Positions 848 through 55,096 of a DNA stretch of 64,000 nucleotides are shown piece by piece. Each line of letters starts with the position of its first letter. Positions within the stretch are counted from its first letter, which is position 1. The stretch comes from Candidatus Micrarchaeota archaeon. GTDB lineage: Archaea; Micrarchaeota; Micrarchaeia; Anstonellales; Bilamarchaeaceae. Position numbers and translations under genes: made by a program. Under the pieces are notes generated by a model. The model was given only the letters and a program-made list of their open reading frames with translations. It did no database searches and was not told the DNA's origin. The DNA is taken from contig JAFGCC010000025.1 in NCBI GenBank assembly GCA_016932815.1, forward strand, positions 7,133 through 71,132. Reading direction: 5' to 3'.

Positions 848-1681
848 GTCAAAATAAGACTATTGTAGGATTGAAACAACGAAAACAAAGCGAGGAACAA
901 GGTGTAAATATGTGCAAGTCAAAATAAGACTATTGTAGGATTGAAACACTATCTATAACATGCTCCAGAAAATCAAAAAAAAGTCAAAATAAGACTATTG
1001 TAGGATTGAAACATAGACATCAACACTACCGTATCATCCAATCTCGTTGATGTCAAAATAAGACTATTGTAGGATTGAAACACAGGGACGCTCTGAAGCC
1101 CCGCAGCACCTCTCGCCTGTCAAAATAAGACTATTGTAGGATTGAAACGTGGCAACTCCCGTAAGAGCGGATTGCCCGGAAAGGTCAAAATAAGACTATT
1201 GTAGGATTGAAACCCCTTGTTCCCCCCATGCTTGAAGGCTTCCGGGGGGTGTCAAAATAAGACTATTGTAGGATTGAAACTCTTCAAAACCGGCGCCTTT
1301 TATGGGGTAGTGGATAAAGTCAAAATAAGACTATTGTAGGATTGAAACAAATCTTTGCGCGCAAGGCCATTAAGCCAATGCTCGGTCAAAATAAGACTAT
1401 TGTAGGATTGAAACTGGAATAGACAAGCAGACCGTGCAGGTGTTAGAGGGGTCAAAATAAGACTATTGTAGGATTGAAACATGGCAGGAGTAGGAGATAT
1501 TTCAGGGCAAAATCTGGCGTCAAAATAAGACTATTGTAGGATTGAAACAAGCTTCATTATTGATTTGGATAGGTATGCCATAGCCGTCAAAATAAGACTA
1601 TTGTAGGATTGAAACAAAACAAACGCCTCCGCGAACTCATAAGCAAGACCGGTCAAAATAAGACTATTGTAGGATTGAATG
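848..1681 (+). CRISPR. CRISPR array with 13 direct repeats of 30 bp (GTCAAAATAAGACTATTGTAGGATTGAAAC) and 12 unique spacers of 35-40 bp
   Basis: Repeats start at 848, 918, 983, 1052, 1119, 1184, 1251, 1319, 1385, 1451, 1519, 1586 and 1652. The last repeat is degenerate at its 3' end (..GATTGAATG). The repeat ends in ATTGAAAC, the usual 8-nt crRNA 5' handle of Cas6-processed type I/III repeats, so transcription is left to right. Confidence 0.97.
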
Positions 1682-3241
1682 TCACAAGAAAGCTTCCAAC
1701 TCCTCCTCGTCTTCCTCATCCGTTTTGGAAGCAGCACTTTCGTATTCAATCGCCTGCAAGTGCAAAGGCTTCCCCTTTTCAAACTTCCGCGACTTCCTGT
1801 CCCGAATCTCCACAAAGATTGGATACCGCACAGCCTCCCCAACGATTATGCCCTCCCCGACCTTCAAGGAAGTAATTGAGCGCGCCATCCGCGAATCAAT
1901 CCCCTCCGCAGACTCTTCAATGTGCTTTAGGTCATTCGGGTTGGTAACTCGTAGTAATACGTGGGTATTACATTGGCTAAGGGTAGTAGTAGAAAGATTA
2001 ACCGGCCTCTGCGAAACAACCCCCAGGCAAATCCCGAATTTCCTCCCCTCGCGCGCAATCTTCTCAATTATGGATTTGGATGGGTTGTGCGCCATCTTCG
2101 CCTTCTCAGGGGCAAAGTTGTGCGCCTCCTCAACGAGCAAAAACACGGGAGGGACCTGCCCCTTCATCCGAAGCTTGAACAACCGGTTAGCCGCATAAGA
2201 AACAATCAGTTTCTTCTTGCGCATATCCTCCAAATCGGACAAATCAAGGACGAGCATCTCGCCTGGGATAACCTGCTTCCTAAATGCAGGGCTCTCCTTG
2301 GACTGCGAAATGAGGTTAATGGATTTCAATTCATAAAGGGCACGAAGAATCGGCTCCTGCACGTTCTTGCGGATGCTGCTTCCTTCCACCCGCTTAATCA
2401 GGTCGGTAATCCCAAAGAGCCTCCTTTCATTTTTCTCCTGGGAAGACATCTCCCGCAGGATTTTCCCAAGCTCGTTCCTCCCGACTCCCGAAACCTCCGG
2501 GAACCATGAAGAAAACATCCCAGGGGTGAGCTGCCTAAAAGGAATGCAAATCTCCGAGCCATTAACAACCCGGACGCGCCTCCCATACGAAGGGTCCCGC
2601 TTAAAGCCCGAATACTCCCCATGAATATCAATTATGACTGTGGCAATCCGCCCATCCTCCAAACGCCTATCAAGCAGTTCCTCAAGCATTACAGAAGCAA
2701 GGTGCGACTTCCCCGCACCGGACTGGGCAAGGATGGCAAGGTGCTTCTGGAAGAGCCGCGTCAAATCAATGCGAGCCTCAACATCATGGTTCTGCAGTTT
2801 CCCAAGCATGAGTCCGTTATCCATAAACCCGACGAAATCCTTAAGCAGGGATTCATCCGCGCTCACAACCGGAGTCCCAGGCGAAGGGGGAAGGGAAACC
2901 CTCTGCTGCATAAAGCGCTCCCCCATCTTTTCCATGCGCCCAAGAACACGGACCTGCGCAACCGCATACTCCCAACTCTTTATGGGAAAATGCGAGGAAA
3001 CCGGGGCTTCTTTCTCATACTCCGCAACCGATTCGGCACGCTCAAAGTAGCGGTTGGCACGGGTAATCTCGGCAACGTAGCCGAAAACAATCCCCTCCTC
3101 GGAAGTAGTCTGCACGAACTGGCCTTTCTTGACCGGGGACTTCTCCTCCAAAACAAAGGAATACTCCAGGGTAGTGGGGGAATCCTCGGTTGAAATTACG
3201 GTTCCAAGGCCATTCATACAATAAAGATTGTCTATAGGCAT
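1682..3241 (-). CDS. herA: HerA-like DUF87 P-loop ATPase (FtsK/HerA superfamily)
   Basis: 519 aa with an N-terminal barrel-like region. Walker A is AILAQSGAGKSHLASVMLEEL and Walker B is VFLLVEEAHNFAP, which is the HerA/DUF87 architecture. A NurA gene lies on the same strand 3.2 kb upstream. The stop codon directly abuts the terminal CRISPR repeat. Confidence 0.65.
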   Translation of the reverse strand: MPIDNLYCMNGLGTVISTEDSPTTLEYSFVLEEKSPVKKGQFVQTTSEEGIVFGYVAEITRANRYFERAESVAEYEKEAPVSSHFPIKSWEYAVAQVRVLGRMEKMGERFMQQRVSLPPSPGTPVVSADESLLKDFVGFMDNGLMLGKLQNHDVEARIDLTRLFQKHLAILAQSGAGKSHLASVMLEELLDRRLEDGRIATVIIDIHGEYSGFKRDPSYGRRVRVVNGSEICIPFRQLTPGMFSSWFPEVSGVGRNELGKILREMSSQEKNERRLFGITDLIKRVEGSSIRKNVQEPILRALYELKSINLISQSKESPAFRKQVIPGEMLVLDLSDLEDMRKKKLIVSYAANRLFKLRMKGQVPPVFLLVEEAHNFAPEKAKMAHNPSKSIIEKIAREGRKFGICLGVVSQRPVNLSTTTLSQCNTHVLLRVTNPNDLKHIEESAEGIDSRMARSITSLKVGEGIIVGEAVRYPIFVEIRDRKSRKFEKGKPLHLQAIEYESAASKTDEEDEEELEAFL

Positions 3242-3279
3242 TTATAAACAATTCGAGGGGAGGTTTCCGGCTTTCCGAA

Positions 3280-3609
3280 TTACCCCAGTATCGAGGATAT
3301 CCCCCTCACAACCCCGTCCCCGTATTCCCTGGAAACCTTTGCAACTCTCCGTATTAATTCTGTTTTGGCAACCCTTCTGATTGTATCATGCCTTACTCCG
3401 CTGCCTGGACATACGCTTCCAAGTGTCAAGTCCATCTTGCCTATCTCCAAAAAACAATCGTGGCTGCTGTTGCTCGTGATTGAACAGATAATGACGTCCG
3501 GGTGGCTATTGTTGTATCTCTTGCCTGAAATTATCAAGGCCGGACGGACTTTGCTTCCAGAGGAATCTATAAAGCTCACGTCCACTAGCCACACCTCCCT
3601 GCAGTTCAT
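3280..3609 (-). CDS. MazF/PemK-family toxin (mRNA interferase)
   Basis: EVWLVDVSFIDSSGSKVRPALIIS...VIICSITS matches the MazF/PemK consensus. There is a 4-nt overlap with the upstream antitoxin ORF. Confidence 0.7.
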   Translation of the reverse strand: MNCREVWLVDVSFIDSSGSKVRPALIISGKRYNNSHPDVIICSITSNSSHDCFLEIGKMDLTLGSVCPGSGVRHDTIRRVAKTELIRRVAKVSREYGDGVVRGISSILG

Positions 3610-3863
3610 ACTTCTTTGCCCTCATAAAATTTTGATGCTTTCTCATCTGCTGGGTTATCCCAGACTTCCCTGAACGAACGCTCTGCTAGAAGGCGGTATT
3701 CCGCTTCTTCGGATAGCCCCAGCTCCTTGTCGAGATTTGCCAGTGCCATGCGCACAACTTCTGTTTTGGAGGTTGCATATCCCCTTTCTATTGCTCTTTC
3801 CACGATTCTTTCCATGACGCCCCTCAATTGCAAGTGTATATTCATTGTATCACAGATATACAT
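3606..3863 (-). CDS. Ribbon-helix-helix (CopG-like) antitoxin partner of the MazF toxin
   Basis: This small ORF (MNIHLQLRGVMERIVERAIERGYATSKTEVVRMALANL) looks like an RHH fold. It is translationally coupled to the toxin by an ATGA overlap. An alternative start lies at Met7 (3845). Confidence 0.55.
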   Translation of the reverse strand: MYICDTMNIHLQLRGVMERIVERAIERGYATSKTEVVRMALANLDKELGLSEEAEYRLLAERSFREVWDNPADEKASKFYEGKEV

Positions 3864-3977
3864 TAGATGTACATATGCTTATAATCTTATCATCTGCATG
3901 TGGCCTTTAAAACAGGAGGAGAGGGTGCCTTTCCGTTGTGCCCCTAAATGGGCACCAACCAGCGTAATGGGATGCAC

Positions 3978-4370
3978 TTATGGTGTTTCCCCAAGTTCCT
4001 TAATCATGTTCTTGTCGTAGGTAGCTGCCCCGCACCCCATTCTCCTGCAAAGGTAGATTACGGTACAATCCGCATAACTAAGCTGGTGCCTCTGTTTCTT
4101 GAAAATCGAGATTATGCAGGAAATCTCGTGCTTGCTCTCAATCGGGAAGATGCCAAAATTCTCTTTTGCATAATCCAGGAAGGCAGAGGCCTGTTTCAAT
4201 CCAGCGTGGTATAAGATTACGGTCGCGGTTTCCCCCAGAATGGATTCACTTACCGTAAAGTAGCCATCTTCCTCTTCATACTTCCGCATTTCCTCAATAG
4301 CCCTCCCATGCAGCGAATCGCTCTCATCAAAAAGCGCAACAAGGAACGAACTATCAAGCACCCTCATCAT
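3978..4370 (-). CDS. vapC: PIN-domain VapC-like toxin
   Basis: M(M)RVLDSSFLVALFDESD...EISCIISIF is a PIN-domain acidic signature. The start was chosen at the Met preceding RVLDSSF. The longer ORF to 4391 is possible. It overlaps the 3' end of the upstream antitoxin ORF. Confidence 0.6.
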   Translation of the reverse strand: MMRVLDSSFLVALFDESDSLHGRAIEEMRKYEEEDGYFTVSESILGETATVILYHAGLKQASAFLDYAKENFGIFPIESKHEISCIISIFKKQRHQLSYADCTVIYLCRRMGCGAATYDKNMIKELGETP

Positions 4371-4638
4371 GCCCACCTTTGCGCTTCCCATACAAAACCG
4401 TATCTATTTCCCTGCTGAGATTCGGGTTTCCGCTGGAGAATTTTATCTTCTCATATGCACTAAACACGCTGGTAGAGCGCTTGCCCTTTTTCTCCTGCAT
4501 TTTTTTCTGGGCAAGAAGGGCAATCTCGCGCATTGCTTCTGCCATGCTCAGCTTGTGCTCCCTTGCATAGTTGGAAATAAACTCCTTTGTTGCATCATCC
4601 AGATTCCGCACCGCGAAGAAATTCGTCATGTTTAACAT
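4354..4638 (-). CDS. VapB-like antitoxin (small DNA-binding protein)
   Basis: MLNMTNFFAVRNLDDATKEFISNYAREHKLSMAEAMREIALLAQ is a small basic protein upstream of and overlapping vapC. A TATA-like TTAAAAAA lies about 20 nt upstream of the ATG on the minus strand. The ORF track extends it to 4722, but the N-terminal extension looks non-native. Confidence 0.5.
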   Translation of the reverse strand: MLNMTNFFAVRNLDDATKEFISNYAREHKLSMAEAMREIALLAQKKMQEKKGKRSTSVFSAYEKIKFSSGNPNLSREIDTVLYGKRKGGHDEGA

Positions 4639-4746
4639 GTTTAACAAACCTTTTTTAATGCTTATGGCAAGTGGCTTGCAGGAGGACACATAAAAAGCGA
4701 TTAAGAGGGGGGCTTTCCGCATTTCCGCACTACTCCATGAGGTAGG

Positions 4747-5127
4747 TCAGATGTATTCGCTATCCACCAAAACCATCTGTTTGGAGGGGTTGTGCACACG
4801 GAAGGAGAGCCGTACTTCATCAGTATCCATGCCCGGAATCTCTTCGCGCATTAATTTGTATGCGAGCAGCCTGATGACTTGCCTGTCATCATCTATCAAA
4901 TAGTTCGATTTCGTCTTTTTCCTATCGTTTGAAATGGCATCCAGAACTACTTTTGAGATATTGTCCACGTCTTGCCATGCGTATCTTTGTTTGTTGACAT
5001 ATATCAAGATGGAAACGTCTAGTTCCTTGTCCCGGATGCCTTCGAATTTGTTATTTTCCATCCACTCGCGTATGTTTCGGATTATTCTTTCTTTGCTTTC
5101 CGCCTTTTTGCTGGTGCATACTTCCAT
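4747..5127 (-). CDS. rusA: RusA-family Holliday-junction resolvase-like endonuclease
   Basis: DVDNISKVVLDAISND...YLIDDDRQVIRL aligns with the RusA catalytic motifs (DLDNLxKAxxDAL...DDxQV). The start was chosen at an internal Met, giving about 126 aa. The ORF is open to 5208. Confidence 0.55.
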   Translation of the reverse strand: MEVCTSKKAESKERIIRNIREWMENNKFEGIRDKELDVSILIYVNKQRYAWQDVDNISKVVLDAISNDRKKTKSNYLIDDDRQVIRLLAYKLMREEIPGMDTDEVRLSFRVHNPSKQMVLVDSEYI

Positions 5128-5304
5128 TAAGATGTTGGAGGCCCCCATGGCATCTTCCAATCGAAGGTTGGCACTATTGGCTGTTTTACCTTTCATCAAG
5201 TGCTGCAAGCCATCATCTCCCGTCTGTTGCTGTTGAGCTTTGGAGTCTAGGCATTAACCCGAATATTTTAATAGCTTGCGAAGGAAGCGTTAAGCGGTGA
5301 TATA

Positions 5305-5625
5305 TTGGCGGTCAAAAAGAGAAACCCCCTTTTCGTGATAGTGGCAAGCTTCATCACGTTCGGGATATATGCGCTATACTGGTTCTATAGCACGACCAAG
5401 GAACTCGGGGAAGTGAACAAGTCCGAGGTTAACCCAATCGTCTGGACCATTGCGCTATTCATCCCGTTTGTGAACCTCTATTTCCTCTGGAAGTACTCAG
5501 GTGAAGCGGAGAAGCTCATGAACAAGAAGCACAGCCAGCTCGTGCTATTTATTGCATGGCTAGTGTTCTTCCCGATTGTGCAGTATCTGGTGCAGAATGA
5601 GCTAAATGCAAAGGCTGCGGCATAA
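5305..5625 (+). CDS. DUF4234-like small membrane protein
   Basis: The FITFGIYALYWFY motif and two further TM helices are present. A TTG start is inferred. Confidence 0.4.
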   Translation: MAVKKRNPLFVIVASFITFGIYALYWFYSTTKELGEVNKSEVNPIVWTIALFIPFVNLYFLWKYSGEAEKLMNKKHSQLVLFIAWLVFFPIVQYLVQNELNAKAAA

Positions 5626-5676
5626 ACGCTGCAGCCCCAATTTTCCTTTTTTCCTTTTGATTAGAAGCAGGTTTGC

Positions 5677-6279
5677 CTAGTCGCTCCCGGTCCTGCGGAG
5701 CATCTTATGGGGAGAAGCCTTCTTCGGGGGCATGGGGATGTCCCTGCGCATCCTAACCGATTTTAGCCCCCCCTCCAGGTCCATCCCGTAGCGGCGGATT
5801 ATCGCTTCAAGCTTCGCCTTCTCCTTGGTTGATGAAAGCTGGAAGATGGTGCTCACAGTGGAGCGCATCTTGTTTGCGGCTTCCTTCTCTCCGGAGTCGC
5901 TAATCTCTTCTAGCAGTATGGGGACTGCCCGCTCCACGAAATCCTTCGCCAGGACCATCGCAGCGCTTTCTGCGGTGGTGCTTACCGAGTCGTCGGAATC
6001 CCCTATTGCGCGCACGATAACGCGGATGCTGCCGTCGTTTATGCAGCGCGGGTTCCCAAGAAGGGTGTTCATAAGCCCCCAGATTGCGCACTCGCGCACT
6101 TCGGCTTCGCAGCCGCGCTCAACCAAGGAGCTGAGGCCGGACACTGCAATCGTAAACCTCCTTGAGGCTACCCCCTCATCCGCAAGCTTGGCTAGGATAT
6201 GGACCCTTGCTAGCTCCTCTGCCGGGGATTTCCGTATAACGCCTTTTGGATGAATATGACTAACACTCCCACACATCAA
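5677..6279 (-). CDS. Hypothetical protein with HEAT/PBS-lyase-like repeats
   Basis: 200 aa with repeating VRxxAIxALGxIGD-like segments. It sits between nurA and the AT-rich islet on the same strand. Confidence 0.35.
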   Translation of the reverse strand: MMCGSVSHIHPKGVIRKSPAEELARVHILAKLADEGVASRRFTIAVSGLSSLVERGCEAEVRECAIWGLMNTLLGNPRCINDGSIRVIVRAIGDSDDSVSTTAESAAMVLAKDFVERAVPILLEEISDSGEKEAANKMRSTVSTIFQLSSTKEKAKLEAIIRRYGMDLEGGLKSVRMRRDIPMPPKKASPHKMLRRTGSD

Positions 6280-6424
6280 ACCTATTTGGGTAGGGAAACC
6301 CTTTTAATACCACATTTTGGGACAAACTACGCCCATTTTTGCACAAAACCGCCTTTTAGTGGGAATGCGGCACCAGCGCTGCAAACCTCCCACGCCTGCG
6401 GAGGGAGCCCGAAAAATCCTCTTT

Positions 6425-7450
6425 TCACCTAAACGGACGTGAGTTCCTCTTTAGGTCCAGGAGCGTGGGCCCTGCAAAGAGGGACAGCGATTTCTTCGCC
6501 CTCTCAAGCTCGTTTGGGTCCATCATTGCGCGCAAATCCGCATCAATTAATACCGCGGGATAAGCGTAAAAGCGGTTTATCGCGCAAAGCGAGGACAATG
6601 TATCCGCAATCCCGGAAAAGCCCGCCTGCCCGTTCAAGAATTCCATCCTGACTGGCCTGTCTCCCGCAACCGGCTTGGAATAAAGGGCGCATATTTTCTC
6701 CCCCCACGCCCCAAGCTCCCGCAGAACGTTGTTTTTCTGCGGAGAATCCGAATACCGGAATGCAAATGTCCTCTCCCCCCCGCCAAGAAGGTGGTTCAGG
6801 AATACGGTATCAGAAGAGCGCTCCCCGGCTCCGGGGGGCAGCATCTCAACAAACCGCCTGGAGCGCGAATCCTTTATTATGCCCGCAAGGACAATGGAAT
6901 TCTCCATGCAATAGGAATAGAGTTCCTTATACAAATTCAAAAGCCCCATGTATTTGGGGAAAAGCTTGGATTCCTCTGCCGGCCTGTCCGATGCAAGCGG
7001 GCACAATGAGCCATCTAGGAGCAAATACGATGGCTTCTCCTTCTTCGCCGTCTCAAGCGCGTTCCCAATCTCAAGCTCAAGGCGGACAAGCGACTTGTGC
7101 CAGAGGAGTTCGCGTTCATCAAGCCCGGTTTCCACGCGGTATTCCGGCTGGGGGAAAGCCCGCGGGAAGTAGGTATGCGAAACTACTCTTCCAGAAGAAT
7201 ATGTAAAAGTGGATGAAACCGCCTTCGCAATCAACAGGTCCGCCCCGTGCATCTCATAGGAGAGTATCCCCCCATCCACTGCGGAAACCTTCCCCTCCAC
7301 CCTTTTGGAAGCGTCAACGGGCAGTATGAATTCCGGCTCAAGCGAACCCCCCGGCAGCTTCCCGGATTCTTTTACCCTTGCTGCGGCCTTAGCGCGCGAA
7401 TCCTCAATCTCGCGTATGTGCGCCGCCGCCATCCGAAGCTGCTCAAGCAT
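6425..7450 (-). CDS. nurA: NurA 5'-3' nuclease
   Basis: The NurA-domain motifs AVDGG, YLLLDGSL, IIKDSRSR and YPAVLIDADLRA are present. It is on the same strand as the HerA-like ATPase. Confidence 0.65.
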   Translation of the reverse strand: MLEQLRMAAAHIREIEDSRAKAAARVKESGKLPGGSLEPEFILPVDASKRVEGKVSAVDGGILSYEMHGADLLIAKAVSSTFTYSSGRVVSHTYFPRAFPQPEYRVETGLDERELLWHKSLVRLELEIGNALETAKKEKPSYLLLDGSLCPLASDRPAEESKLFPKYMGLLNLYKELYSYCMENSIVLAGIIKDSRSRRFVEMLPPGAGERSSDTVFLNHLLGGGERTFAFRYSDSPQKNNVLRELGAWGEKICALYSKPVAGDRPVRMEFLNGQAGFSGIADTLSSLCAINRFYAYPAVLIDADLRAMMDPNELERAKKSLSLFAGPTLLDLKRNSRPFR

Positions 7451-7602
7451 AAGCGCATCTTTTGCATTCCACCTTTAAAAACCAATTGAGGGCGGCATTC
7501 CGCAAAACCCCCCTGGAAGCCAACCTCCCATAAACCCTGCCCGCAGGAACGCGCTTACCCCCCCGCTTATTAATCTTGCTGCCCAATCCCAAAGGTGGTC
7601 AA

Positions 7603-8265
7603 ATGATTGAGGAAACCTGCAGGAAGATGTTCCTGTCCCTGCTCCCGGAAAACATAGACAAGTTCTCAAAAGAGAAAAAGAGTTCCCCCAAAGACGGGCT
7701 GAAAGTTTACGCCCTAGCATGGGCGGCAACCTTCACCCTCTCATTAATCGTCCTTGCAATAGGAATATTCCGCGACGGGATGGACACCGCGGTAAGCAAC
7801 TACCTGGGATTCGCCGTTTCCGGAGCCTTCTCCTTTGCAGCATTCCTCCTAATCTCCATTTTCGGGCTAATATGGGGGATTGCGGCAACCTACGCCGCGC
7901 AGTATGCGGGCAACTGGGTTGCGAAAAACGCATTCAACGGGAAAGCCGATTTCCCAAGCCAGTTCTGGCTAATAATGCTATTTAGCGGGGCGCTAATGGT
8001 CGCAGATTCAATCCTAGGGCTCCTAAGCTACCTTGCCCCCATCCTGGAAATCCCAATAGGCCTCTTTTCCCTCCTCCTTGGGATTTACGGGGTCTACCTT
8101 ATGTATTATGGGATGAAGTCCATCCACAAGCTTGAGGCTTCCGGGGCGATAGTATCAGTTCTCTCAATCATGCTGGTCCAGGCATTAATCTTCATGGCAA
8201 TAGCGTTCTTTGTGGGGATGCTCATGGTGCTCCTTGGCGTGACTGCGCTCGCCCCTCAACTGTGA
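7603..8265 (+). CDS. Yip1-domain-like multi-pass membrane protein
   Basis: Five or six predicted TM helices. GGTGG lies 8 nt upstream of the ATG at 7603. Confidence 0.35.
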   Translation: MIEETCRKMFLSLLPENIDKFSKEKKSSPKDGLKVYALAWAATFTLSLIVLAIGIFRDGMDTAVSNYLGFAVSGAFSFAAFLLISIFGLIWGIAATYAAQYAGNWVAKNAFNGKADFPSQFWLIMLFSGALMVADSILGLLSYLAPILEIPIGLFSLLLGIYGVYLMYYGMKSIHKLEASGAIVSVLSIMLVQALIFMAIAFFVGMLMVLLGVTALAPQL

Positions 8266-8374
8266 GCAAAGCTCTCCGCGCTGCGGCAGCTTGCCCCAGA
8301 GATGGATAGCCGCCATTGAAGGCAGGAATCCCCTGCCCCACCCCTTTTTCTTCTTTTGCTTCCTAATCCAACAC

Positions 8375-8722
8375 ATGTTTTCATACAAACAGGCAATCGT
8401 GCTGCGCACCGACCTTGGGATGGGCAAGGGGAAGCTGGTTGCGCAGGGCTCCCACGCCGCCCTGGTTGCTTATTCCAAAGCCGGAGAGGTTGAAAAGAAG
8501 GCATGGGATTTATCCGGCCAGAAAAAAATAGTGCTCAAAGCATCCTCGGAAGAGGAACTGCTTGAATTCTTCATGCGGTGCAAGGAAGCGGGGCTCAAGC
8601 CCGCCCTAATCCGCGATGCCGGGCACACCCAGATTCCAGCAGGCAGCATAACCGCTTTCGCAGTAGGCCCCGCAGAAGAGGGGAAAATCGATTCGATTTT
8701 GGGGCAGCTCAAGCTCCTCTGA
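8375..8722 (+). CDS. pth2: Peptidyl-tRNA hydrolase, archaeal type (Pth2)
   Basis: KQAIVLRTDLGMGKGKLVAQGSHAALVAY...LIRDAGHTQIPAGSITAFAVGP is a near-canonical Pth2 sequence. Confidence 0.85.
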   Translation: MFSYKQAIVLRTDLGMGKGKLVAQGSHAALVAYSKAGEVEKKAWDLSGQKKIVLKASSEEELLEFFMRCKEAGLKPALIRDAGHTQIPAGSITAFAVGPAEEGKIDSILGQLKLL

Positions 8723-8799
8723 AGGGGAAGGATGCTACCTATTTAAAAAAGTTCTTCCACATATCTTGTCTTCTAACAACTTAATGGAGACGGATTGCG

Positions 8800-9477
8800 A
8801 TGGATGATGAGTTCATAGAGGATTATGGGGAGTTTGTGGACAATGCAAGGGATTCTTCTAAATCCCTGAGGGAGAGGGAAACGAGTGCCTCCCTGCTGCT
8901 CGAAGACGATTTTGCAACTTCAAAGCTGGACCTAGAAACCCTGGTGATATGCAGGCTGCTGCGCGCGCAGGGCGAAGACCTTTCCGATTTGATGGGTGGT
9001 GCGGCCACCAGGAACAAACTGCACGAAGTGCGCAGCATACTGCACAAGGTTGCCCTAACCGAGAATGAACCCGACGTCCTAGTAAGGGTTTCGGACCTGC
9101 TCTCTTTCTGCGGCTGCAGGGATTCAATTAGCTCCCTCATCCTCATAATCAGCAGGGACGAGAGTGCAGGCAGCAGGGCGGCAAACGCCGCAATCGACGC
9201 CATCTCGGCACTAGCGGTAAATGCGCGCCCCAAGGACGTGGACGTTTTCTCAAAGAGGGTGCAGGCTGCAAGGTCCCAAAAGGAAATCTCCCGCTATTAC
9301 GGAAAGCCATTGGAGAGAGTCCTCTCCGTACTCGCGCAGAAAAAGAAATGCCCCGATACCCCCGAACTAATGAGGTGGGTAGCAAGGAACAAGCCTGAAC
9401 TCTCCGGGCGCATCGAAGGCCCAAAAAGGAGGATGGCCGCAAGGCAGATGGCCTGCATGGGAACGGCCAAGCGGTAA
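8800..9477 (+). CDS. Hypothetical HEAT-like repeat protein, tandem paralog A (225 aa)
   Basis: It shares the CRLLRA, AANAAIDA and NKPELSGRIEGPKRRMAARQ motifs with the adjacent ORF. A TATA-like ATTTAAAAAA lies at 8741-8750. Confidence 0.5.
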   Translation: MDDEFIEDYGEFVDNARDSSKSLRERETSASLLLEDDFATSKLDLETLVICRLLRAQGEDLSDLMGGAATRNKLHEVRSILHKVALTENEPDVLVRVSDLLSFCGCRDSISSLILIISRDESAGSRAANAAIDAISALAVNARPKDVDVFSKRVQAARSQKEISRYYGKPLERVLSVLAQKKKCPDTPELMRWVARNKPELSGRIEGPKRRMAARQMACMGTAKR

Positions 9478-9506
9478 TATCCGCAAAAACAGGAGGACCG
9501 GTTGAA

Positions 9507-10184
9507 ATGGATAATCCGCATAATTATGGATCCTCGGAAACAAGGAAGCTGGAAACGATAAGCGACCCTTTAGTGCCGCTGCAAATTAGGAAAAAACTTG
9601 CATCAGAAGCGATAGTGGAGTTCGTCAGCCTATTTGACAGGGAGATGTCCGTGCTATGCAGGCTCCTGCGCGCGGACCCAAAAGATTTTTCGTACCTGCT
9701 TGACCCGGAAGAGTTCCTCCCGACAGAACTCCTGCCGGTATTGCACCGCTTCCTCATGCGGGAAGAGGACGAGAGGGTCCACCTGCGCGCCTGCGACGTG
9801 CTCGCCTTCCGCGGAGACAGGACTTCCGTAACCCCCCTCAGCATACTGCTTGCGATGCGGGGCATAGGAGATACGGCCGCAAATGCCGCAATCGACGCTT
9901 TCTTCATGCTCTCAATTAGGTCCCCCAAGCCGGAACTGCACGTTTTCCTGCGGGGCCTTAACGCAGCAAAGCGCGATAGGTCAATAGCTGCCCAGCACAG
10001 GGAAACAATTTCGCAGATTTCCGATGTCATCTACACTAGGAAGAGGTTCAATATGTCCATGGGGGAAACCCTTTACTGGATGGAAAAGAACCGCCCCGGG
10101 CTGGAAAAAAGGTTCAACCGCCCAAAAAGAAGGATGGAGAAGAGGGGCGTGCCCGGTTTCGTGAGAGCAAGGCAAACCTGCTAA
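9507..10184 (+). CDS. Hypothetical HEAT-like repeat protein, tandem paralog B (225 aa)
   Basis: Same length and shared motifs as paralog A (CRLLRAD, AANAAIDAF, NRPGLEKRFNRPKRRMEKR). Confidence 0.5.
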   Translation: MDNPHNYGSSETRKLETISDPLVPLQIRKKLASEAIVEFVSLFDREMSVLCRLLRADPKDFSYLLDPEEFLPTELLPVLHRFLMREEDERVHLRACDVLAFRGDRTSVTPLSILLAMRGIGDTAANAAIDAFFMLSIRSPKPELHVFLRGLNAAKRDRSIAAQHRETISQISDVIYTRKRFNMSMGETLYWMEKNRPGLEKRFNRPKRRMEKRGVPGFVRARQTC

Positions 10185-10256
10185 GCACCAAAAAAGAAAA
10201 CGAATGAAAGATAAAATTAAAGGGGGGGGCGGGAGGCCAAAAGGGAGCGGGGAAAA

Positions 10257-11177
10257 CTATTCCCCAAGCTCCTTTTTGCGCTCGGTATCGACTTTCTCCC
10301 GCCATACCCAGCCTTCCCAGCGCTCATCTACCATTTTCTGGATTTCGGAAACGTCTTCGGGGGTAAGGTGCTTGAACCTCTTTTGCCCCTTAAGGTAAGT
10401 TTCCACGGGCTTCTTCTCCGGCTTCATGTTCATCTTGAGATACCCATTCTCAATCTCAAGCAGGGGCCAGACATGAGTATCCACAGCGTCTTTCAAATAC
10501 TGTATGCTCAGTGATGGGTCGGTTCCCCACCCCGGCACGCACGTACATAACACGTTTAGGAACTTGGGCCCCCTAATAGAGAGCGCCTTCTTTACTTTCA
10601 TCTCCAAATCCGTATAATGCGCGCTAGTTGAGCTTGCAACATATGGAATCCCGTGTGCTGCGACAATCTCGGTCATGGGCTTCTTGTTCTGCAGTTTCCC
10701 GCGGATTTTGCTCCCAACCTGCGAAGTAGTCGTATACGCTTTCCACGGGGTTGCCCCGCTCCTCTGCACGCCCGTGTTCATGTATGCCTCATTGTCATAG
10801 GAGATATACAGGACGTCGTGCCCGCGCTCTAGCATCCCGGATAGGTGCCCAAAGCCGATATCATAGGAAGCGCCGTCTCCGGCTAGCACGACCACTTTCG
10901 TGTGGTCGTTGCCCATGGCACGCAGGGCTTCCACTACCCCGGCAGCCACCGGAGCCGCGTTCTCAAATACGCAGTGCACATACGGGACTTCCCATGCGCT
11001 CTTAGGATATGCGCTGGTAAAGATTTCACTGCACCCGGTTGCATTCACGATTACGCAGTCTTTCCCAACGGCACGCATTATGTGCCTGAATCCCGTGGCG
11101 ACCGCACATCCTGCGCACGCGGTGTGCCCGCTCTTGAAGAGTTCCTTGTTTTCAAATACGCCGCTCATTTTAGTCAC
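10257..11177 (-). CDS. porB: Pyruvate/2-oxoacid:ferredoxin oxidoreductase beta subunit (TPP-binding)
   Basis: GHTACAGCAVATGFRH and the TPP motif VVLAGDGASYDIGFGHL are present. It follows porA. Confidence 0.9.
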   Translation of the reverse strand: MTKMSGVFENKELFKSGHTACAGCAVATGFRHIMRAVGKDCVIVNATGCSEIFTSAYPKSAWEVPYVHCVFENAAPVAAGVVEALRAMGNDHTKVVVLAGDGASYDIGFGHLSGMLERGHDVLYISYDNEAYMNTGVQRSGATPWKAYTTTSQVGSKIRGKLQNKKPMTEIVAAHGIPYVASSTSAHYTDLEMKVKKALSIRGPKFLNVLCTCVPGWGTDPSLSIQYLKDAVDTHVWPLLEIENGYLKMNMKPEKKPVETYLKGQKRFKHLTPEDVSEIQKMVDERWEGWVWREKVDTERKKELGE

Positions 11178-12303
11178 CCCACACTTTCTTCACCACGCCG
11201 GCTTCCGCTTCCGAAAGCATCGCCTCAATGTCCGCAACGGTCACGTCCTTTCCGCCGAGCCCCCCGATAATAGAGGAGAGCTCGCAGTCCACCCCGGCTT
11301 CCTTTGCGCAGGTGCAAAGTTCCGAGTAGAGCGGCGCATCCGCTCCCATGCTCAGGGCCTTCTCAAACACGACCGCTTTCTTTCCCGCAAGGGCCTTTAC
11401 CGCTTCTGAGGGGAAAGGCCTGTAGCACCTAATGCGCAGGATTCCCGCTTTCTTGCCATCTTTTCTCATCTTCTCAATTGCAAGTTCCGCGTTCTCCATC
11501 ACGCTTCCCATGCCGATGAAAACGACTTCCGCATCGGAGAGCCCAATCTCCTCCCAGAGCCCGTTTCCATAAGAGCGCCCGGAAACCTTTGCCCAGGCTT
11601 CCATCTCTTCTTTGATGTTCTTCGCAGAAGCAATTACGTCCTCATGCAAATCAATCCTGAATCCCTGGTATGTTGCGGGCAGCGCATACATCCCCATCGT
11701 AATCGGGTTCTCCGGGTCCAGTTTATACAAAGCCTTCCTTGGGGGAAGGTAGCCGGAAATCATGTCCCTCTGCGGAACGTCTATCTGCTCAACTAAGTGC
11801 GTAAGGTAGAATCCGTCCATGCACACCATCACCGGGATGTTCGTGTCTTCTGATATCTTGAATGCCTGCGGAACGGTATCCACGACCTCCTGGTTGTTCT
11901 TGCAGTAAAGCTGTATCCAGCCCGAATCCCTCTCGGAAACCGAGTCCTGGTGGTCGTTCCAGATGCTCAAAGGCGCGCTAAGGGAGCGGTTCGCATTCAC
12001 AATGACCATGGGCAGCCTCATTCCCGAAGCCGCAAAAATCACCTCGTGCATGAGCGCCAGCCCCTGCGAGTCGGTCGTGGTAAAAGCGCGCGCACCGGCA
12101 GCGCTTGCCCCAACAATCATTGAAATAGCGGAGAACTCGCTCTCAACAGCCGTGTAGCTTTTTATCTCCCCGTTTGCGTACATCTTGTCCAATTCCTCGG
12201 CAATGTGCGTGGAGGGCGTAATCGGGAAGCACGCAACAACATCGGGAGAGCAATCGCGCACGACTTCCGCCACGGCAAAGCTGCCTTCAATAGTCTTCTT
12301 CAT
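11170..12303 (-). CDS. porA: Pyruvate:ferredoxin oxidoreductase alpha subunit
   Basis: MKKTIEGSFAVAEVVRDCSPDVVACFPITPSTHIAEEL is a PorA N-terminus. The start is chosen at the internal Met just after the porD stop. Confidence 0.9.
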   Translation of the reverse strand: MKKTIEGSFAVAEVVRDCSPDVVACFPITPSTHIAEELDKMYANGEIKSYTAVESEFSAISMIVGASAAGARAFTTTDSQGLALMHEVIFAASGMRLPMVIVNANRSLSAPLSIWNDHQDSVSERDSGWIQLYCKNNQEVVDTVPQAFKISEDTNIPVMVCMDGFYLTHLVEQIDVPQRDMISGYLPPRKALYKLDPENPITMGMYALPATYQGFRIDLHEDVIASAKNIKEEMEAWAKVSGRSYGNGLWEEIGLSDAEVVFIGMGSVMENAELAIEKMRKDGKKAGILRIRCYRPFPSEAVKALAGKKAVVFEKALSMGADAPLYSELCTCAKEAGVDCELSSIIGGLGGKDVTVADIEAMLSEAEAGVVKKVWGD

Positions 12304-13093: not shown

Positions 13094-13261
13094 TGGTTCA
13101 CCTTGTGTTTTTGCCCAAATCGCACCCAACTATTAAAATCCTTATTAGGGGAATTTCGGCAAAGAGCGAAATTCCGCCTGCCTTCCCGGTGCTCCCTACG
13201 CCTCCCTGCTGGAGGGAACTGCCACTGAATGCTTTTTATAATTTGCCTGAAAGTCCCCCCC

Positions 13262-16200
13262 ATGCAAAAATGCAATATACCTCCCTTTTTGGTGCTCATG
13301 GTTGCACTAATCATGAGCGCAGCTTCATTCTCTTACTATGAGTATGGGGGAGCCCTCTACTGCAACACTACCTGCGACGACTGCGAGGACGCGCTCAACA
13401 ACGCAACCTACACTACCGTTTACCTGAACTCCTCCCTTTCTTCGCCAGGCGCAACCTGCATAAGCAATCCCAGCGGCTTCTCCAACAAGGTCTTTGACTG
13501 CCAGGGGAACACAATCACGGGCACGGGAAGCGGCTACGGAATCTACATCTACTCCCCAGCCAAGACCAACCTCACAATAAAGAACTGCCAGGTTTCGGGC
13601 TTCAACTACAACGTATATGCAAGATACCTATCATATTCCCACCTGGACAACCTCACAATCTTCAACTCCTCCACGGATACGCTGTACATCCGCCAGATGG
13701 GCAACTCCACTATCTCCAACACCACGGCCTGCAACTCCTCCCACGAGGCGTTCGGCTTCGACTATTCCGGTGACACCCTCATAATAAACAACACATTCTG
13801 CAATGCCACCCAGCAGGCCCTAGAAGTAAGGGGGTCAATCAACAACACTTTCATCTACAATAACTTCTACAATGCGACTGCGGGAATAGACTTCCACTAT
13901 GCGATGGAGGACTACCTCTACAACACGATTGCCAACAACACGATTTACGACGTTTACCGCGGAATCGCCTTAGCCGAGGGTTTCGTGCACAACCTGATAG
14001 TGAACAATACAATAACCAGCCTCGCCTATTGCCCCCTCGACAGCCGTGAAGGCCACTACCTCTCCATGGAATACTATTATGCTTCAAGCTGTGACAACAC
14101 GATTGAGAACAATACCGGGGACGGAAGGCCCATCTACCACTACCACGATGAAGCGGTGGACCTCAGCGATTTCGAGGCGGCAGAACTCATGCTCTGCAAT
14201 GCGGACGACAGCACGGTGCAGAACGTAACCCTGATAGGGGGAGGAGGAGGCCTATTCAGCATGTTCTCAGACAACCTCATCGTAAACTCGAGCTACTCTT
14301 ACAATGCATCCTGCGGATTCAGGATAAACTACTGCGCATTTACCCTGGTAAACAGCGTAGCCCAGGAAAACGCCCACAGGGACGTGGGCATCAGCCCCTA
14401 TTCCGAAGCCTTCAACATAATCTGCGACCAGCTGAACATCACCAACGTCACGGGTTCCGGAGGCCTCCCCATAAACTTCACCAACGTGCCGGTGGAATGG
14501 AGCGATTTCGAATCATCGCAGGTAATCCTGTGTGGCGCCAACTATTCCAACATAAGCGGGATGACCGTTTCCGGCTCCAGCACGCACAGGAACAACGGCG
14601 TTGACTTATACTCCGCTTACAACATCAACATAAGCTCGTCCACGTCCGATTCCAACTTTTTCGGTTTCCACTACTATTACTGCCACAACATCTGGCTCTA
14701 CAACAGTTCTGCAAGCGGCAATGCGGCAGATGGGATTTACGCGTATTCGTACCCCTACAGCAACAACCTCTCCATAATAGGGAACACCGCAAACGGCAAC
14801 GGGGAGCACGGCATCTACCTGTGGCCGGCAAGGGACAGCACGATTTCGTCCAACACCGCCTCGGACAACGAGTTTTCGGGCATAAACGTGGATTACGAGT
14901 CATCCAACATAACAGTGGATTCGAACACCGCCTCCGGAAACGGAATGGAGGGAATCGGGGTATATTCCTCCTTCAACGTAACCGTTTCCAACAACAGGGT
15001 ATATTCCAACGGGGATTCGGATTCCGAAGTAATCGCGGACGACCCGTTTTTCAATTTTGACTGGTTCCCATACCCCGCCTTTGCGGGGATAAGGATTGAG
15101 TATTCCGACTCATCCTACAGCGCGGACATAACGCTGGCCAACAACACGGTTTACGGAAACGAGTATTACGGCATAGTCGCAAACCTCTCGGACAACGTCT
15201 CCTCCACCAACGACCGCGTTTATGGCAACGGCTTAGCGGAGATATACGCGGGTACCGACGGTACGGCAAGGGAGGTTTACTTTACCGCAATGCTCCTTGA
15301 TTCCTCGGATTACCCGAACGTGACAATCAGCGACCGGCTCGACTCCAGCACTGCATATACAATCGCGAAGGTTTCGTCTCCCAACACCAACTATCCAGGC
15401 GGAACCGCAGTCCAGAACAGGCTAATCAACGTAACCTACATAACCGGCTCCCCGACAATAGATTCATTAACCTGGGCCTGGGGAAACCCGGAGCAGAACG
15501 ATTACGATGAGTCCACTTTCGACTTGTGGAGGTACGTAATAAGCTGGGTGGACCTCAATGCAACCAGCAACACTGCCTCCAATGAACTCAACTACTCTTC
15601 AATAAGCACTGCGGGGGTTTATGGGATGCTCGGAACTTATTTCTGGGGAGACACGGACGATGGCGGCAACGGGCCTGAGCCTGAGTGCGAATCCGATTCC
15701 GACTGCGGAACCTGCGAGGAATGCAGTCGGGGCGAATGCATCCTCCCAAGCGGGGCGTGCCGCTCCGTTTCGGGCTGCACCGGAGCCGGATACTTATGCA
15801 TATCCTGCGAATGCGTCCCTCCCGAATGCATATCTGATTCCGATTGCAATGAGGGATACGAATGCGAGGATTACGAGTGCGTTGAAATTTACATTGAGCC
15901 AGAATGCGCCTCGGACCAAGACTGTGGAGGATGCGAAGAATGCATTGGGGGTGAGTGCGTTCTCCCAAGCGGGGTTTGCTTGTCCGATTCGGAGTGTGCA
16001 GGCGAGGGGGAAGTGTGCGAATCGTGCGGATGCGTGCCTCCCGAGTGCACCAGGGATTCCGACTGCACGGGGGAAGGCGAATCCTGCGTGGATTATGCAT
16101 GCATCCTGCCCGAATGCACAACGGATTCGGAGTGCGCACAGAATGAAGAATGCAGCGATTATGCCTGCGTGGAAAACAAATCCCCACAGGGGGGCACCAC

Positions 16201-16387
16201 CGGAGGCAATGAGCGGGGGCAATCCCAGGAAGTCCCGGGCGCTGGAACCGGAGAGCCCGGAGCCGGTGAAGAAACCGGGGCCGGAATGCCCTCCCCAATC
16301 GAACTGCTCCTTGGAGCGGGAATCGGGGTGGCGGTGCTCTACTTCGCCTGGAAGTTCCTCCTGGGAGGAGCCAGTGCGGGAAAGTGA
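13262..16387 (+). CDS. Large secreted surface protein, paralog 1: signal peptide, right-handed beta-helix (NosD/PbH1-like) repeats, conserved GSPTID..W.W module, Cys-rich repeats, C-terminal TM anchor
   Basis: N-terminal signal peptide MQKCNIPPFLVLMVALIMSAASFS. Many NxxT/NxS-containing beta-helix turns. C-terminal tandem CxSDSDCxxCEECxxGECxLPSGxC units. Terminal hydrophobic helix GAGIGVAVLYFAWKFLLGG. Very high N-glycosylation sequon density. Confidence 0.75.
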   Translation: MQKCNIPPFLVLMVALIMSAASFSYYEYGGALYCNTTCDDCEDALNNATYTTVYLNSSLSSPGATCISNPSGFSNKVFDCQGNTITGTGSGYGIYIYSPAKTNLTIKNCQVSGFNYNVYARYLSYSHLDNLTIFNSSTDTLYIRQMGNSTISNTTACNSSHEAFGFDYSGDTLIINNTFCNATQQALEVRGSINNTFIYNNFYNATAGIDFHYAMEDYLYNTIANNTIYDVYRGIALAEGFVHNLIVNNTITSLAYCPLDSREGHYLSMEYYYASSCDNTIENNTGDGRPIYHYHDEAVDLSDFEAAELMLCNADDSTVQNVTLIGGGGGLFSMFSDNLIVNSSYSYNASCGFRINYCAFTLVNSVAQENAHRDVGISPYSEAFNIICDQLNITNVTGSGGLPINFTNVPVEWSDFESSQVILCGANYSNISGMTVSGSSTHRNNGVDLYSAYNINISSSTSDSNFFGFHYYYCHNIWLYNSSASGNAADGIYAYSYPYSNNLSIIGNTANGNGEHGIYLWPARDSTISSNTASDNEFSGINVDYESSNITVDSNTASGNGMEGIGVYSSFNVTVSNNRVYSNGDSDSEVIADDPFFNFDWFPYPAFAGIRIEYSDSSYSADITLANNTVYGNEYYGIVANLSDNVSSTNDRVYGNGLAEIYAGTDGTAREVYFTAMLLDSSDYPNVTISDRLDSSTAYTIAKVSSPNTNYPGGTAVQNRLINVTYITGSPTIDSLTWAWGNPEQNDYDESTFDLWRYVISWVDLNATSNTASNELNYSSISTAGVYGMLGTYFWGDTDDGGNGPEPECESDSDCGTCEECSRGECILPSGACRSVSGCTGAGYLCISCECVPPECISDSDCNEGYECEDYECVEIYIEPECASDQDCGGCEECIGGECVLPSGVCLSDSECAGEGEVCESCGCVPPECTRDSDCTGEGESCVDYACILPECTTDSECAQNEECSDYACVENKSPQGGTTGGNERGQSQEVPGAGTGEPGAGEETGAGMPSPIELLLGAGIGVAVLYFAWKFLLGGASAGK

Positions 16388-22071: not shown

Positions 22072-22306
22072 GCGCAGGGGGAATTTCTCCCTGCCCATAT
22101 CCTTTTTCTTATTCTTGGGCCCCAAGGGGCTCCTCCAGCTTTTTTGCAGCCGCAGCCTCAATAAAGTTTATATATTTTTGCCTTGTTATCCTGCTATTGC
22201 AACGGGTGTGGGTCCGAACCGCCGCATAATGGGCATTTGCATAAAATGCGCATTTAACGGGAGAGGCGGCAGCGGATTTGATGGGAATGCTAGCATATTG
22301 CAGCAT

Positions 22307-26401: not shown

Positions 26402-26632
26402 GCCTGAACCGGGGAGGCAGAGCGCCGCCGGCACGCTGAGCGCATGGCAGCAGGGGCACACGGCAAGCGGGGCGCCCCCCTGCAATCGGCATTCCGCCTG
26501 CGCCTCCCGCTTCCTAGGAAACGGGGCGTGCGGGCGCAGGGGCATCCCGGCATTGGGCGCAATCGCCCCACCCCCGCTTCTCTGAGGGCACCCATCACAA
26601 CATTTATATCCGTTGTCTGCAATCCATTTGGT

Positions 26633-55087: not shown

Positions 55088-55096
55088 GGCAGCAAA

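Follow-up and report, generated by a model that had tools for sequence, protein, structure and literature searches.

In archaea, the gene cluster herA-mre11-rad50-nurA marks the canonical operon for double-strand break (DSB) repair. HerA–NurA of T. kodakarensis is reported to degrade both DNA strands, and an antiviral role has been proposed (PMC12977600, 2026). The same paper cites CRISPR-linked nurA-csm6-herA clusters in Pyrobaculum and binding of Csa3a to the nurA and herA promoters in Sulfolobus (Bernick 2012 and Liu 2020, cited there). A literature search on HerA and NurA in DPANN archaea found nothing specific. Here we analysed herA and nurA in 64 kb of contig JAFGCC010000025.1 from a Micrarchaeota (DPANN) genome; this whole stretch is referred to below as the window. 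It was found that both are vertically inherited core genes with decayed linkage. New here is a shared element of ~40 nt, a predicted promoter and operator, which links nurA, herA and a repair-type radical-SAM gene. Overall, the best reading, which we hold with moderate confidence, is a vertically inherited HerA–NurA machine co-regulated via duplicated promoters, with the herA promoter as a hotspot for cassette insertion. The machine would be a housekeeping one for processing DNA ends, in which a hexameric HerA translocase would feed DNA to a NurA nuclease dimer.

All open reading frames (ORFs) named in the original prediction, an earlier reading of the same letters, were found at the coordinates it gave, with nurA and herA both on the minus strand and 3.2 kb between them. 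The best homologues of HerA and NurA were proteins of metagenome-assembled genomes labelled Micrarchaeota, Micrarchaeia, Anstonellales, Bilamarchaeaceae. An independent Logan assembly (L086; L and P numbers denote related loci and genomes throughout) was 100 % identical to the window over 1589–11929 and ended inside the CRISPR array that lies next to herA. Read along the minus strand from nurA to herA, the genes are as follows.

6425–7450, minus strand: nurA, 341 aa, a NurA-family RNase H-like nuclease (Pfam NurA and fold match).
5677–6279, minus strand: orf200, a lineage-specific alpha-helical repeat (HEAT/ARM-like) protein with a basic disordered tail, according to its predicted structure.
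5305–5625, plus strand: DUF4234 small membrane protein (Pfam DUF4234, 3e-11).
4747–5208, minus strand: rusA-like Holliday-junction resolvase gene (Pfam RusA, PHROG 140).
3978–4722, minus strand: cassette of RHH antitoxin and PIN (VapC-like) toxin (ORFs 4354–4722 and 3978–4391).
3255–3920, minus strand: cassette of antitoxin and MazF/PemK toxin, 666 bp (ORFs 3606–3863 and 3280–3609).
1682–3241, minus strand: herA, ORF of 519 aa with HAS-barrel and DUF87, a predicted hexameric translocase of the FtsK/HerA family.

In an alignment of upstream regions, an element with the consensus cGGAAAgCCnCCCTCaATTgnTTTwTAAA was found to precede nurA and herA in the window and in all clade members. Its layout is one or two nCGGAAnn units, CCnCCCTC, about 7 nt and a TATA box. 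A gapless position weight matrix (PWM) and a strict regular expression missed copies with 1-nt indels, and a profile hidden Markov model (HMM; nhmmer) was used instead. Sites with E < 1e-3 were found only at nurA, herA, the two toxin–antitoxin (TA) cassettes and a radical-SAM gene.

7471–7509, minus strand: predicted nurA promoter, GCGGAATGCCGCCCTCAATTGG plus TATA box TTTTTAAA (7474–7481), 31 nt before the ATG; nhmmer E 2.8e-8, PWM 40.9 bits.
4691–4727, minus strand: element copy upstream of RHH-PIN; nhmmer E 6.8e-5; GGAAAGCCCCCCTC matches the core pattern exactly.
3903–3943, minus strand: hybrid copy at the left junction of the MazF cassette, made of a chromosomal upstream half and the TATA region of the cassette; nhmmer E 7.9e-4.
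3236–3277, minus strand: predicted herA promoter, CGGAAAGCCGGAAACCTCCCCTCGAATTG plus TATA box TTTATAAA (3241–3248), 31 nt before the ATG at 3217; nhmmer E 2.4e-8, PWM 37.4 bits.
30414–30455, plus strand: element copy before the radical-SAM/HhH gene at 30476–31732, with a 1-nt indel and 32 nt from TATA box to ATG; nhmmer E 1.9e-4.

The core pattern (GGAANCCNCCCTC-type; GGAAANCCNCCCTC with at most one mismatch) had five matches in the 64 kb against 0.75 expected. Four of them lie on the coding strand of the interval, before nurA, RHH-PIN, antitoxin-MazF and herA, and the fifth before the gene at 30476. With a 28-nt PWM there were four matches in the window (0.1 expected), and across 1.34 Mb of related loci every PWM match of at least 29 bits stood directly upstream of nurA, herA or RHH-PIN. 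The nurA copy is conserved in L001, L002, L003, L006, L086, L087, L088 and L100 and the herA copy in L001–L006, L086, L087, L095 and L104, while RHH-PIN copies occupy the equivalent place in L001, L002, L086, L087 and L092. A pattern scan of metagenomes gave 19 matches, of which four came from the clade, at herA (L095, L104), nurA (L100) and RHH-PIN (L092). The other 15, on unrelated and mostly AT-rich contigs with no ORF at promoter distance, were taken as chance.

At nurA, herA and the radical-SAM gene the TATA box has its first T 30–32 nt ahead of the ATG. Such geometry is that expected of leaderless archaeal mRNAs. For herA this holds for the ATG at 3217; since the upstream ATG (3241) shares sequence with the TATA box, the true start is most likely 3217, giving a product of 511 aa. 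The nurA and herA genes would thus each be transcribed from their own promoter as a leaderless mRNA, with the element as operator for one shared transcription factor, and co-regulation via duplicated promoters would replace co-transcription.

The radical-SAM/HhH protein (30476–31732) matches TIGR03916, 'putative DNA modification/repair radical SAM protein', at 6e-71, and its orthologue in L004 (58 % identity; 2852–4069) also bears the element. In the P0008/L004 genome this orthologue lies ~1 kb from herA, which suggests an older nurA...herA-radical-SAM neighbourhood that has since been rearranged in the window genome. A weak variant of the element at 63755–63779 (plus strand; E 0.017), with tandem GCGGAAnn units and CCCTC and a longer spacer to the TATA box, precedes an ORF running from 63826 to the window end. 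This 58-aa fragment matches MCM_N at E 6.5e-5, just under the cut-off, and mcm may belong to the same regulon. From these sequence features we infer a gene-specific operator and promoter by which nurA and herA, though split, would stay under joint control with one or more further genes of DNA metabolism. The copies at the putative repair radical-SAM gene and, weakly, at mcm point to a regulon of DNA metabolism rather than of defence.

The ATPase was placed in the HerA branch by HMM classification. In Pfam it matched DUF87 at 4.8e-29 (102.5 bits) and the N-terminal HAS-barrel at 26.0 bits (cut-off 25.2). Its best NCBIfam models were two canonical archaeal HerA models (6e-52 and 4e-46), with anti-phage HerA (1e-38 and 2e-37), CedD (3e-25), CedB (4e-4) and VirB4 (5e-3) at lower ranks. 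A conjugative VirB4/TraC-type ATPase at 1682–3241, the alternative raised in the original prediction, is excluded (VirB4 0.005 vs canonical HerA 6e-52). The closest solved structures were HerA of T. kodakarensis (9x1l, 1.6e-38) and of S. solfataricus (4d2i, 2.3e-34). Walker A (S174-G175-x-G177-K178-S179; GAGKS) and Walker B (VEEAHNF; E371-E372-A373-H374) are invariant in 22 orthologues, and the top 120 of more than 3000 homologues came from Micrarchaeota/DPANN. The NCBIfam equivalog 'DSB repair helicase HerA' scored 177 bits (cut-off 970) and a second model 157 (cut-off 800); the protein is a family member and not the curated equivalog. At its C-terminus (1682–1720), an acidic stretch is followed by a near-invariant E516-A517-F518-L519 (at least 90 % of the 22 orthologues), which may be a partner-docking tail.

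The nuclease matched Pfam NurA (PF09376) at 9e-13 and 48.7 bits (cut-off 21) over residues 54–306. Sequence searches of the PDB, with the single sequence and with a 25-sequence profile, gave no matches. The AlphaFold model (pLDDT 92.1) had as its top Foldseek match 2ygk_A (S. solfataricus NurA; E 2.4e-13, TM 0.63/0.67), followed by 9x1m_G and 3taz_B, so that the leading structural matches are the NurA proteins of S. solfataricus, T. kodakarensis and P. furiosus. The fold also matches 7f6d_G, and EndoV and the PIWI domain of Argonaute are remoter relatives, as expected. The acidic residues D59 (in AVDGG), E127, D146 and D305 are invariant in 25 orthologues, and judging by motif position D59 would be the counterpart of T. 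kodakarensis D49 or S. solfataricus D58.

Orthologues of NurA (n=86) were nearly all from Micrarchaeota, and HerA and NurA orthologues across Micrarchaeota/DPANN were 45–96 % identical. The divergent pair pth2|nurA is kept in the window and in L002, L003, L049, L071, L075, L084 and L087. Beside pth2, two tandem proteins of 225 aa (8800–9477 and 9507–10184, plus strand) are mutual paralogues (31 % identity) with no family match; one copy is kept in L002, and HEAT_2-annotated proteins fill that position in the P0008 genome. A paralogous relation of orf200 to these proteins was rejected, as no similarity was found.

To place the 3.2 kb separation in context, 80 genome loci around HerA orthologues in Micrarchaeota and neighbouring DPANN were surveyed, and nurA was sought with the NurA HMM. 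Of the 36 loci with 9 kb or more of sequence upstream of herA, 7 had nurA within a range of about 10 kb; the 57 loci with 5 kb or more of downstream sequence had none there. Every linked nurA lies upstream of herA and shares its strand, the gap being −96 to 8001 nt. In the close relatives (nine loci and one gene table) the two genes are 2–8 kb apart with variable cargo. The following compositions were found; the three contigs carrying P0008 were assessed from gene tables.

L002 (HerA 96 % and NurA 93 % identical): orf200, DUF4234, rusA, RHH and PIN; no MazF pair and no CRISPR.
L001 (HerA 90 %): order of L002 minus rusA.
L087 (NurA 84 %): order of L002 minus rusA.
L003 (HerA 79 %): HEAT protein and cyclase-like protein by nurA, then an orf200-like gene, with DUF4234 by herA.
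P0008 genome (HerA 77 %): four other genes in the gap.
L006 (HerA 72 %): unannotated 383-aa protein by nurA, then an orf200-like gene, with DUF4234 by herA.

The original prediction had treated the separation as a departure from an adjacent pair. It is not exceptional: all sampled close relatives are split by 2–8 kb, and nurA is out of reach in 29 of the 36 loci. True adjacency was seen in the survey only in L050 and L075; these few DPANN cases would fit an ancestral pair whose members became separated later. Elsewhere, L084 has a flavin reductase in a nurA-herA gap of 1.4 kb, and in L085 herA stands alone among housekeeping genes. In other lineages the gap holds a HEAT protein, a cyclase-like protein, a PfkB kinase, an fn3 protein, a PEP-utilising enzyme or a flavin reductase; these contents are heterogeneous and mostly unrelated to defence. 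TA pairs also occur by nurA in distant Micrarchaeota: in L083, with no herA within 10 kb, an NTase/HEPN pair lies directly downstream of nurA (11196–12168), and in L084 a VapB/PIN pair (8372–8997) lies two genes upstream of pth2|nurA.

The four-gene cluster of the canonical archaeal DSB-repair operon is absent here. As the original prediction had stated, no mre11 or rad50 accompanies the pair: Mre11 and Rad50 domains were missing from every ORF of at least 200 aa in the 64 kb, and no Metallophos/Mre11 or SMC/Rad50 protein was found in the window or adjoining herA or nurA in the inspected relatives. Because inserted mobile DNA lies between them, nurA and herA cannot be one simple operon, and the opposite-strand DUF4234 gene also stands between the two. 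In Micrarchaeota and the sampled DPANN, nurA and herA are thus mostly unlinked or loosely linked, without mre11/rad50 nearby, and operon context is therefore unusable for annotating or interpreting these genes in these phyla.

The gap was further divided into resident genes and mobile cargo. GC content over 3000–5000 was 0.46–0.48 against a window mean of 0.527. Relative to a background of 35 genes, GC content at third codon positions (GC3; mean 0.649, sd 0.055) was mildly low only in mazF, PIN, RHH and rusA (z −1.4 to −1.6; rusA −1.5), and it was native in DUF4234 (z +0.6) and orf200 (z +0.8), the low overall GC of DUF4234 being due to its amino-acid composition (GC2 0.29). The AT-richness that the original prediction had assigned to 3250–5640 is therefore real but modest, and it is limited to about 3255–5300. 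The same prediction had proposed comparison with related genomes: the gene order recurs in relatives, and a mild composition shift is present. Its picture of one islet did not hold, since DUF4234 and orf200 are conserved residents with native GC3. The resident genes are orf200 and DUF4234; the recent mobile cargo is rusA and the two TA cassettes.

DUF4234 is 69–83 % identical in L001, L002, L003 and L006, in step with HerA divergence, and directly adjoins herA in L003 and L006. It first stood divergently beside herA, and the TA cassettes later came between; tight DUF4234-herA linkage is therefore dispensable. The second resident, orf200, put forward in the original prediction as a possible third component, had no match in Pfam, NCBIfam, PHROG or PADLOC, and only five homologues among 5.8 billion proteins. 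It was seen in the gap only within this narrow clade (L001, L002, L003, L006, L086, L087) and is fast-evolving (28–81 % identity). The weak relatives in L003 and L006 (28–29 %) keep company with DUF4234-herA and not with nurA. Its model is an 8-helix alpha-solenoid with a basic disordered tail (pLDDT 68), and the best structural matches, of moderate confidence, were designed helical-repeat, armadillo and TOG/HEAT proteins, which make the earlier label 'HEAT-like' plausible.

The content of the gap was classed by Pfam as the original prediction had claimed, with two TA pairs, rusA and DUF4234, the antitoxins only weakly. RusA scored 26.2 bits (cut-off 22.8) and matched PHROG 140; it carries a D-x-D-N...DDD pattern (QDVDNISKVVLDA...LIDDDRQV), whose Asp cluster we take to be catalytic by analogy with E. 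coli RusA. It was not present in L001, L087, L003 or L006. Both toxins were above the Pfam cut-off: PemK_toxin at 46 bits (6.9e-12; 3280–3609) and PIN at 36 bits (1.2e-8; 3978–4391). The antitoxins (3606–3863 and 4354–4722) gave weak RHH/VapB matches under the cut-off, the best a FitA-like RHH at 3.5e-5. These antitoxin ORFs (85 and ~95 aa) lie upstream and overlap the toxin genes by 4 and 38 nt, so that both pairs have the type II TA layout of a toxin domain above threshold and a small, overlapping antitoxin gene upstream. The N-terminus of the RHH ORF (from 4722) is probably spurious, because the ORF start runs over the promoter-element copy, and the true start is probably near 4640. The RHH-PIN cassette was found in L001, L002, L086 and L087 and not in L003 or L006; the MazF cassette was found only in the window and L086.

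Comparison with L002 shows how this cargo arrived. The MazF cassette is a clean 666-bp indel (3255–3920) whose two junctions both carry CCCTC; the stretch around it is 100 % identical to L002, and the cassette is the most recent insertion. At the left junction the upstream half agrees fully with the herA promoter of L002, and the sequences part exactly after CCCTC; the right junction combines an upstream half-element borne by the cassette with the chromosomal herA TATA box. A motif-bearing cassette would thus recombine with the herA promoter and leave herA with a complete promoter. RHH-PIN likewise has an element copy on either side in the window, L001, L002 and L087, and both cassettes lie directly upstream of herA in the tandem order motif-RHH-PIN-motif-antitoxin-MazF-motif-herA.

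A second route is indicated by identity along the locus. Third-codon identity between the window and L002 was 0.94 in rusA, 0.89 in RHH, 0.92 in PIN and 0.77 in herA, against 0.59–0.67 in pth2, Yip1 and nurA. Sliding identity was about 0.8 at 8300–5450, rose to 0.91–1.00 from about 5350 to about 2950 and then decayed; the high tract includes 100 % over the herA promoter and the first ~300 nt of herA. This tract is the signature of a recent import by homologous recombination anchored in DUF4234 and herA, and the rusA-RHH-PIN block would have spread between lineages in this way, with its anchors at DUF4234 and at the 5′ end of herA. The gap grew in steps: L003 and L006 have neither TA pairs nor rusA, L001 and L087 have neither rusA nor MazF, and L002 has no MazF. 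No integrase or recombinase genes were found in or near the interval (Pfam, NCBIfam), nor were tRNA or Rfam elements as integration targets. The proposed check for long direct or inverted repeats flanking the whole gap gave only short chance matches. No viral-contig relatives of rusA or MazF were found, and a viral origin of the cargo is unsupported beyond generic PHROG family matches. The motif-bounded TA cassettes and the sharp tract of 96–100 % identity document how very small archaeal genomes acquire and exchange accessory genes while a core promoter stays intact.

The chief uncertainty of the favoured reading is what the element does, whether as operator, as recombination target or as both. 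It could primarily be a recombination site, integron-attC-like or att-like, whose presence at nurA, herA and the radical-SAM gene reflects cassette biology. The tandem array of motif-bounded cassettes fits this, as do junctions exactly at CCCTC with the hybrid copies expected from a circular cassette crossing with the herA promoter, the 27 of 28 identical positions between the RHH-PIN and herA copies of L001 and the direct abutment of each cassette's stop codon on the next motif. Yet the interval lacks an integrase or recombinase, a tRNA and flanking inverted repeats; nurA, herA and the radical-SAM gene hold stable positions as core genes, and their copies of the motif are conserved as orthologues, those at nurA in L003 and L006 resembling each other more closely than they resemble the copies at herA. 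The element also ends in a consensus TATA box at a fixed spacing from the ATG, there are two cassette types at a single site, and a 5-bp microhomology equally fits illegitimate recombination; we regard a primary recombination site as unlikely. A dual role, in which an operator and promoter of DNA metabolism is also the preferred recombination target for promoter-bearing TA cassettes, would make the site an integrase-less, integron-like hotspot hijacking a core promoter without inactivating it, and this too is a doubtful proposition. Even less weight is given to a generic strong-promoter consensus of the lineage (B recognition element and TATA box) with nothing specific to nurA or herA. The canonical TATA box, looser C-rich/A-rich/TATA arrangements upstream of herA in the distant relatives L007, L049 and L071 and the small sample of about 60 genes of this genome speak for it. 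Against these, nhmmer --max (no filters) gave no further window site with E below 6, about 150 kb of clade flanking DNA held no strong PWM match before other genes, and CCCTCNAWTNNTTTWTAA has just two exact matches in the 64 kb, at nurA and herA, which makes a generic consensus very improbable. Last, the whole gap (about 3250–5640) might be one small mobile element that disrupted an intact nurA-herA operon in this genome, as its lower GC than the flanks, its content of TA genes, RusA and a small membrane protein, and the adjacency of nurA and herA in L050 and L075 would have it. The part of this proposal that stands is the insertion of mobile DNA between the genes. The whole gap is not one element and the split is typical of the lineage: DUF4234 and orf200 have native GC3, are kept in the gap down to 72 % HerA identity and diverge in step with HerA, the gap was built stepwise across L001, L002, L003, L006 and L087, the recent tract does not begin until about 5350 and runs on into herA, and no integrase, tRNA or terminal repeats surround the whole. 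The single-element reading is largely refuted and, as a full account, scarcely credible.

The remaining alternative concerns defence, and it begins with the neighbour of herA, which consists of the following features.

848–1681, plus strand: CRISPR array, 13 repeats of 30 nt, repeat GTCAAAATAAGACTATTGTAGGATTGAAAC.
60–744: cas1 and cas2, which precede the CRISPR array.

The pair does lie beside the array, as the original prediction had it. The leader is on the cas2 side (744–848), and the degenerate terminal repeat (1652–1681) abuts herA, ending one base before its stop codon. HerA–NurA could accordingly be a CRISPR-associated or defence-island module degrading invading linear DNA, with the two TA pairs between the genes as abortive-infection companions. 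HerA also matches generic PADLOC HerA models at 188 bits, near its canonical HerA score, and the T. kodakarensis, Pyrobaculum and Csa3a reports of PMC12977600 lend the idea further support; the PADLOC scores themselves, being so similar, were rejected as a separator of defence from housekeeping HerA. However, Cas1/Cas2 homologues were found in none of 85 related loci, and a repeat-array scan of the same loci gave no convincing array and one doubtful 3-copy repeat in L059. Downstream of herA, L002 and L087 have APH and/or IF-2 and L001 an unrelated ATPase, with no array there. Because relatives have IF-2/APH at this place, the cas-CRISPR locus was gained here, or lost in relatives, precisely at the herA 3′ end, with its other junction outside the window. 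It is a strain-specific, incidental neighbour and does not belong to the nurA/herA unit. Variability and recent arrival mark the TA cassettes, whereas nurA and herA show stable vertical inheritance and, for pth2|nurA, conserved synteny; NurA matched no PADLOC model; and gap cargo in other lineages is metabolic or structural. By nhmmer, the promoter element was detected neither in the CRISPR leader nor anywhere left of 3236, and it is shared with the repair-type radical-SAM gene, which would favour DNA metabolism over antiviral defence in the debate on the role of HerA–NurA. The role in defence put forward in the original prediction is hence not borne out, and we rate it as quite unlikely. An attractive defence-island story by CRISPR adjacency is thereby corrected to documented ordinary genome microevolution.

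Several points weigh against the favoured reading of a co-regulated, vertically inherited housekeeping machine. Both proteins score far below the NCBIfam equivalog cut-offs (177 vs 970 bits), and their functional equivalence to the studied enzymes is assumed. 'Housekeeping' and 'defence' are not cleanly separable for the HerA–NurA family, given PMC12977600. The promoter and operator roles are predicted from TATA consensus, fixed spacing, orientation and conservation. The element scan covers 64 kb of this genome (about 60 genes) and about 20 kb per relative, and the motif was modelled from the same clade in which it was counted, so that independent support is limited to the untrained loci, namely L004 and L005, left out of PWM training and still giving matches, and L086, L088, L092, L095, L100 and L104. 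At mcm the site is a weak one (E 0.017) with a longer spacer. As a clade-specific feature, the element nevertheless offers a testable handle on regulation in an uncultivated DPANN lineage.

Other features of the window lie outside the nurA-herA interval. A 993-aa ORF at 59408–62389 (plus strand), with GC3 of 0.42 against the background of 0.65 ± 0.055 and a faint DUF5122 beta-propeller match, makes a far better foreign-DNA candidate than any part of the nurA-herA gap. Four NosD/right-handed beta-helix proteins of 979–1461 aa stand in a row (13229–16387, 19132–22071, 22016–26401 and 26444–30325, plus strand). One has a Laminin_G_3 domain, GC dips to 0.47 at 19–21 kb, and they are probably surface or adhesion proteins of a putatively symbiotic archaeon. 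At 53204–58766 (plus strand) lies a type IV pilus/archaellum-like assembly cluster with a T2SSE ATPase, a 560-aa protein without assignment and two T2SSF membrane proteins, preceded by a coiled-coil protein (51475–53193) and a 566-aa multi-winged-helix protein (49480–51180, minus strand).

Compared with the archaeal HerA–NurA systems of S. solfataricus (4d2i/2ygk), T. kodakarensis (9x1l–9x1p) and P. furiosus (3tai), the window has the same two families, the same domain layout and invariant Walker and acidic residues, and wherever the genes are linked their relative order and strand are the same. It differs in that the genes are outside a herA-mre11-rad50-nurA operon, with no mre11/rad50 in 64 kb, and are 3.2 kb apart with an opposite-strand gene between them and separate predicted promoters. 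The proteins are also very divergent, NurA being undetected in the PDB by sequence and HerA reaching 177 of 970 bits. The nurA-herA pair of Deinococcus-Thermus (D. radiodurans, 7f6d) likewise lacks an adjacent Mre11-Rad50, and its NurA (7f6d_G) is matched by the fold of the window protein. There the genes are adjacent and co-transcribed (PMC12977600), whereas in the window they are separate predicted units that share a promoter element.

For Pyrobaculum and Sulfolobus, the likeness is the position of herA/nurA beside a CRISPR array and, conceptually, a site for a shared factor that also controls other DNA-repair genes. The window has no csm6 or CARF gene between the two genes, CRISPR adjacency occurs in no relative and the motif was not detected in the CRISPR leader. 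Anti-phage HerA systems (SIR2-HerA and DUF4297-HerA; 8xau, 8wiv, 9c1m and others) have the HerA ATPase core in common, with 115 bits against 136 for archaeal HerA. In the window, however, the partner is NurA, SIR2 and DUF4297 domains are absent, and NCBIfam ranks the anti-phage models below canonical HerA. The TA cassettes of integrons and superintegrons are similar to the cargo described here as tandem small cassettes bounded by an element of ~40 nt with the junction at a fixed core. They differ in that no integron integrase was found in the region, and the repeats in the window are direct copies of a promoter element rather than attC palindromes. The window element also has a TATA box and precedes stable core genes, two cassettes were observed, and the host is an archaeon.

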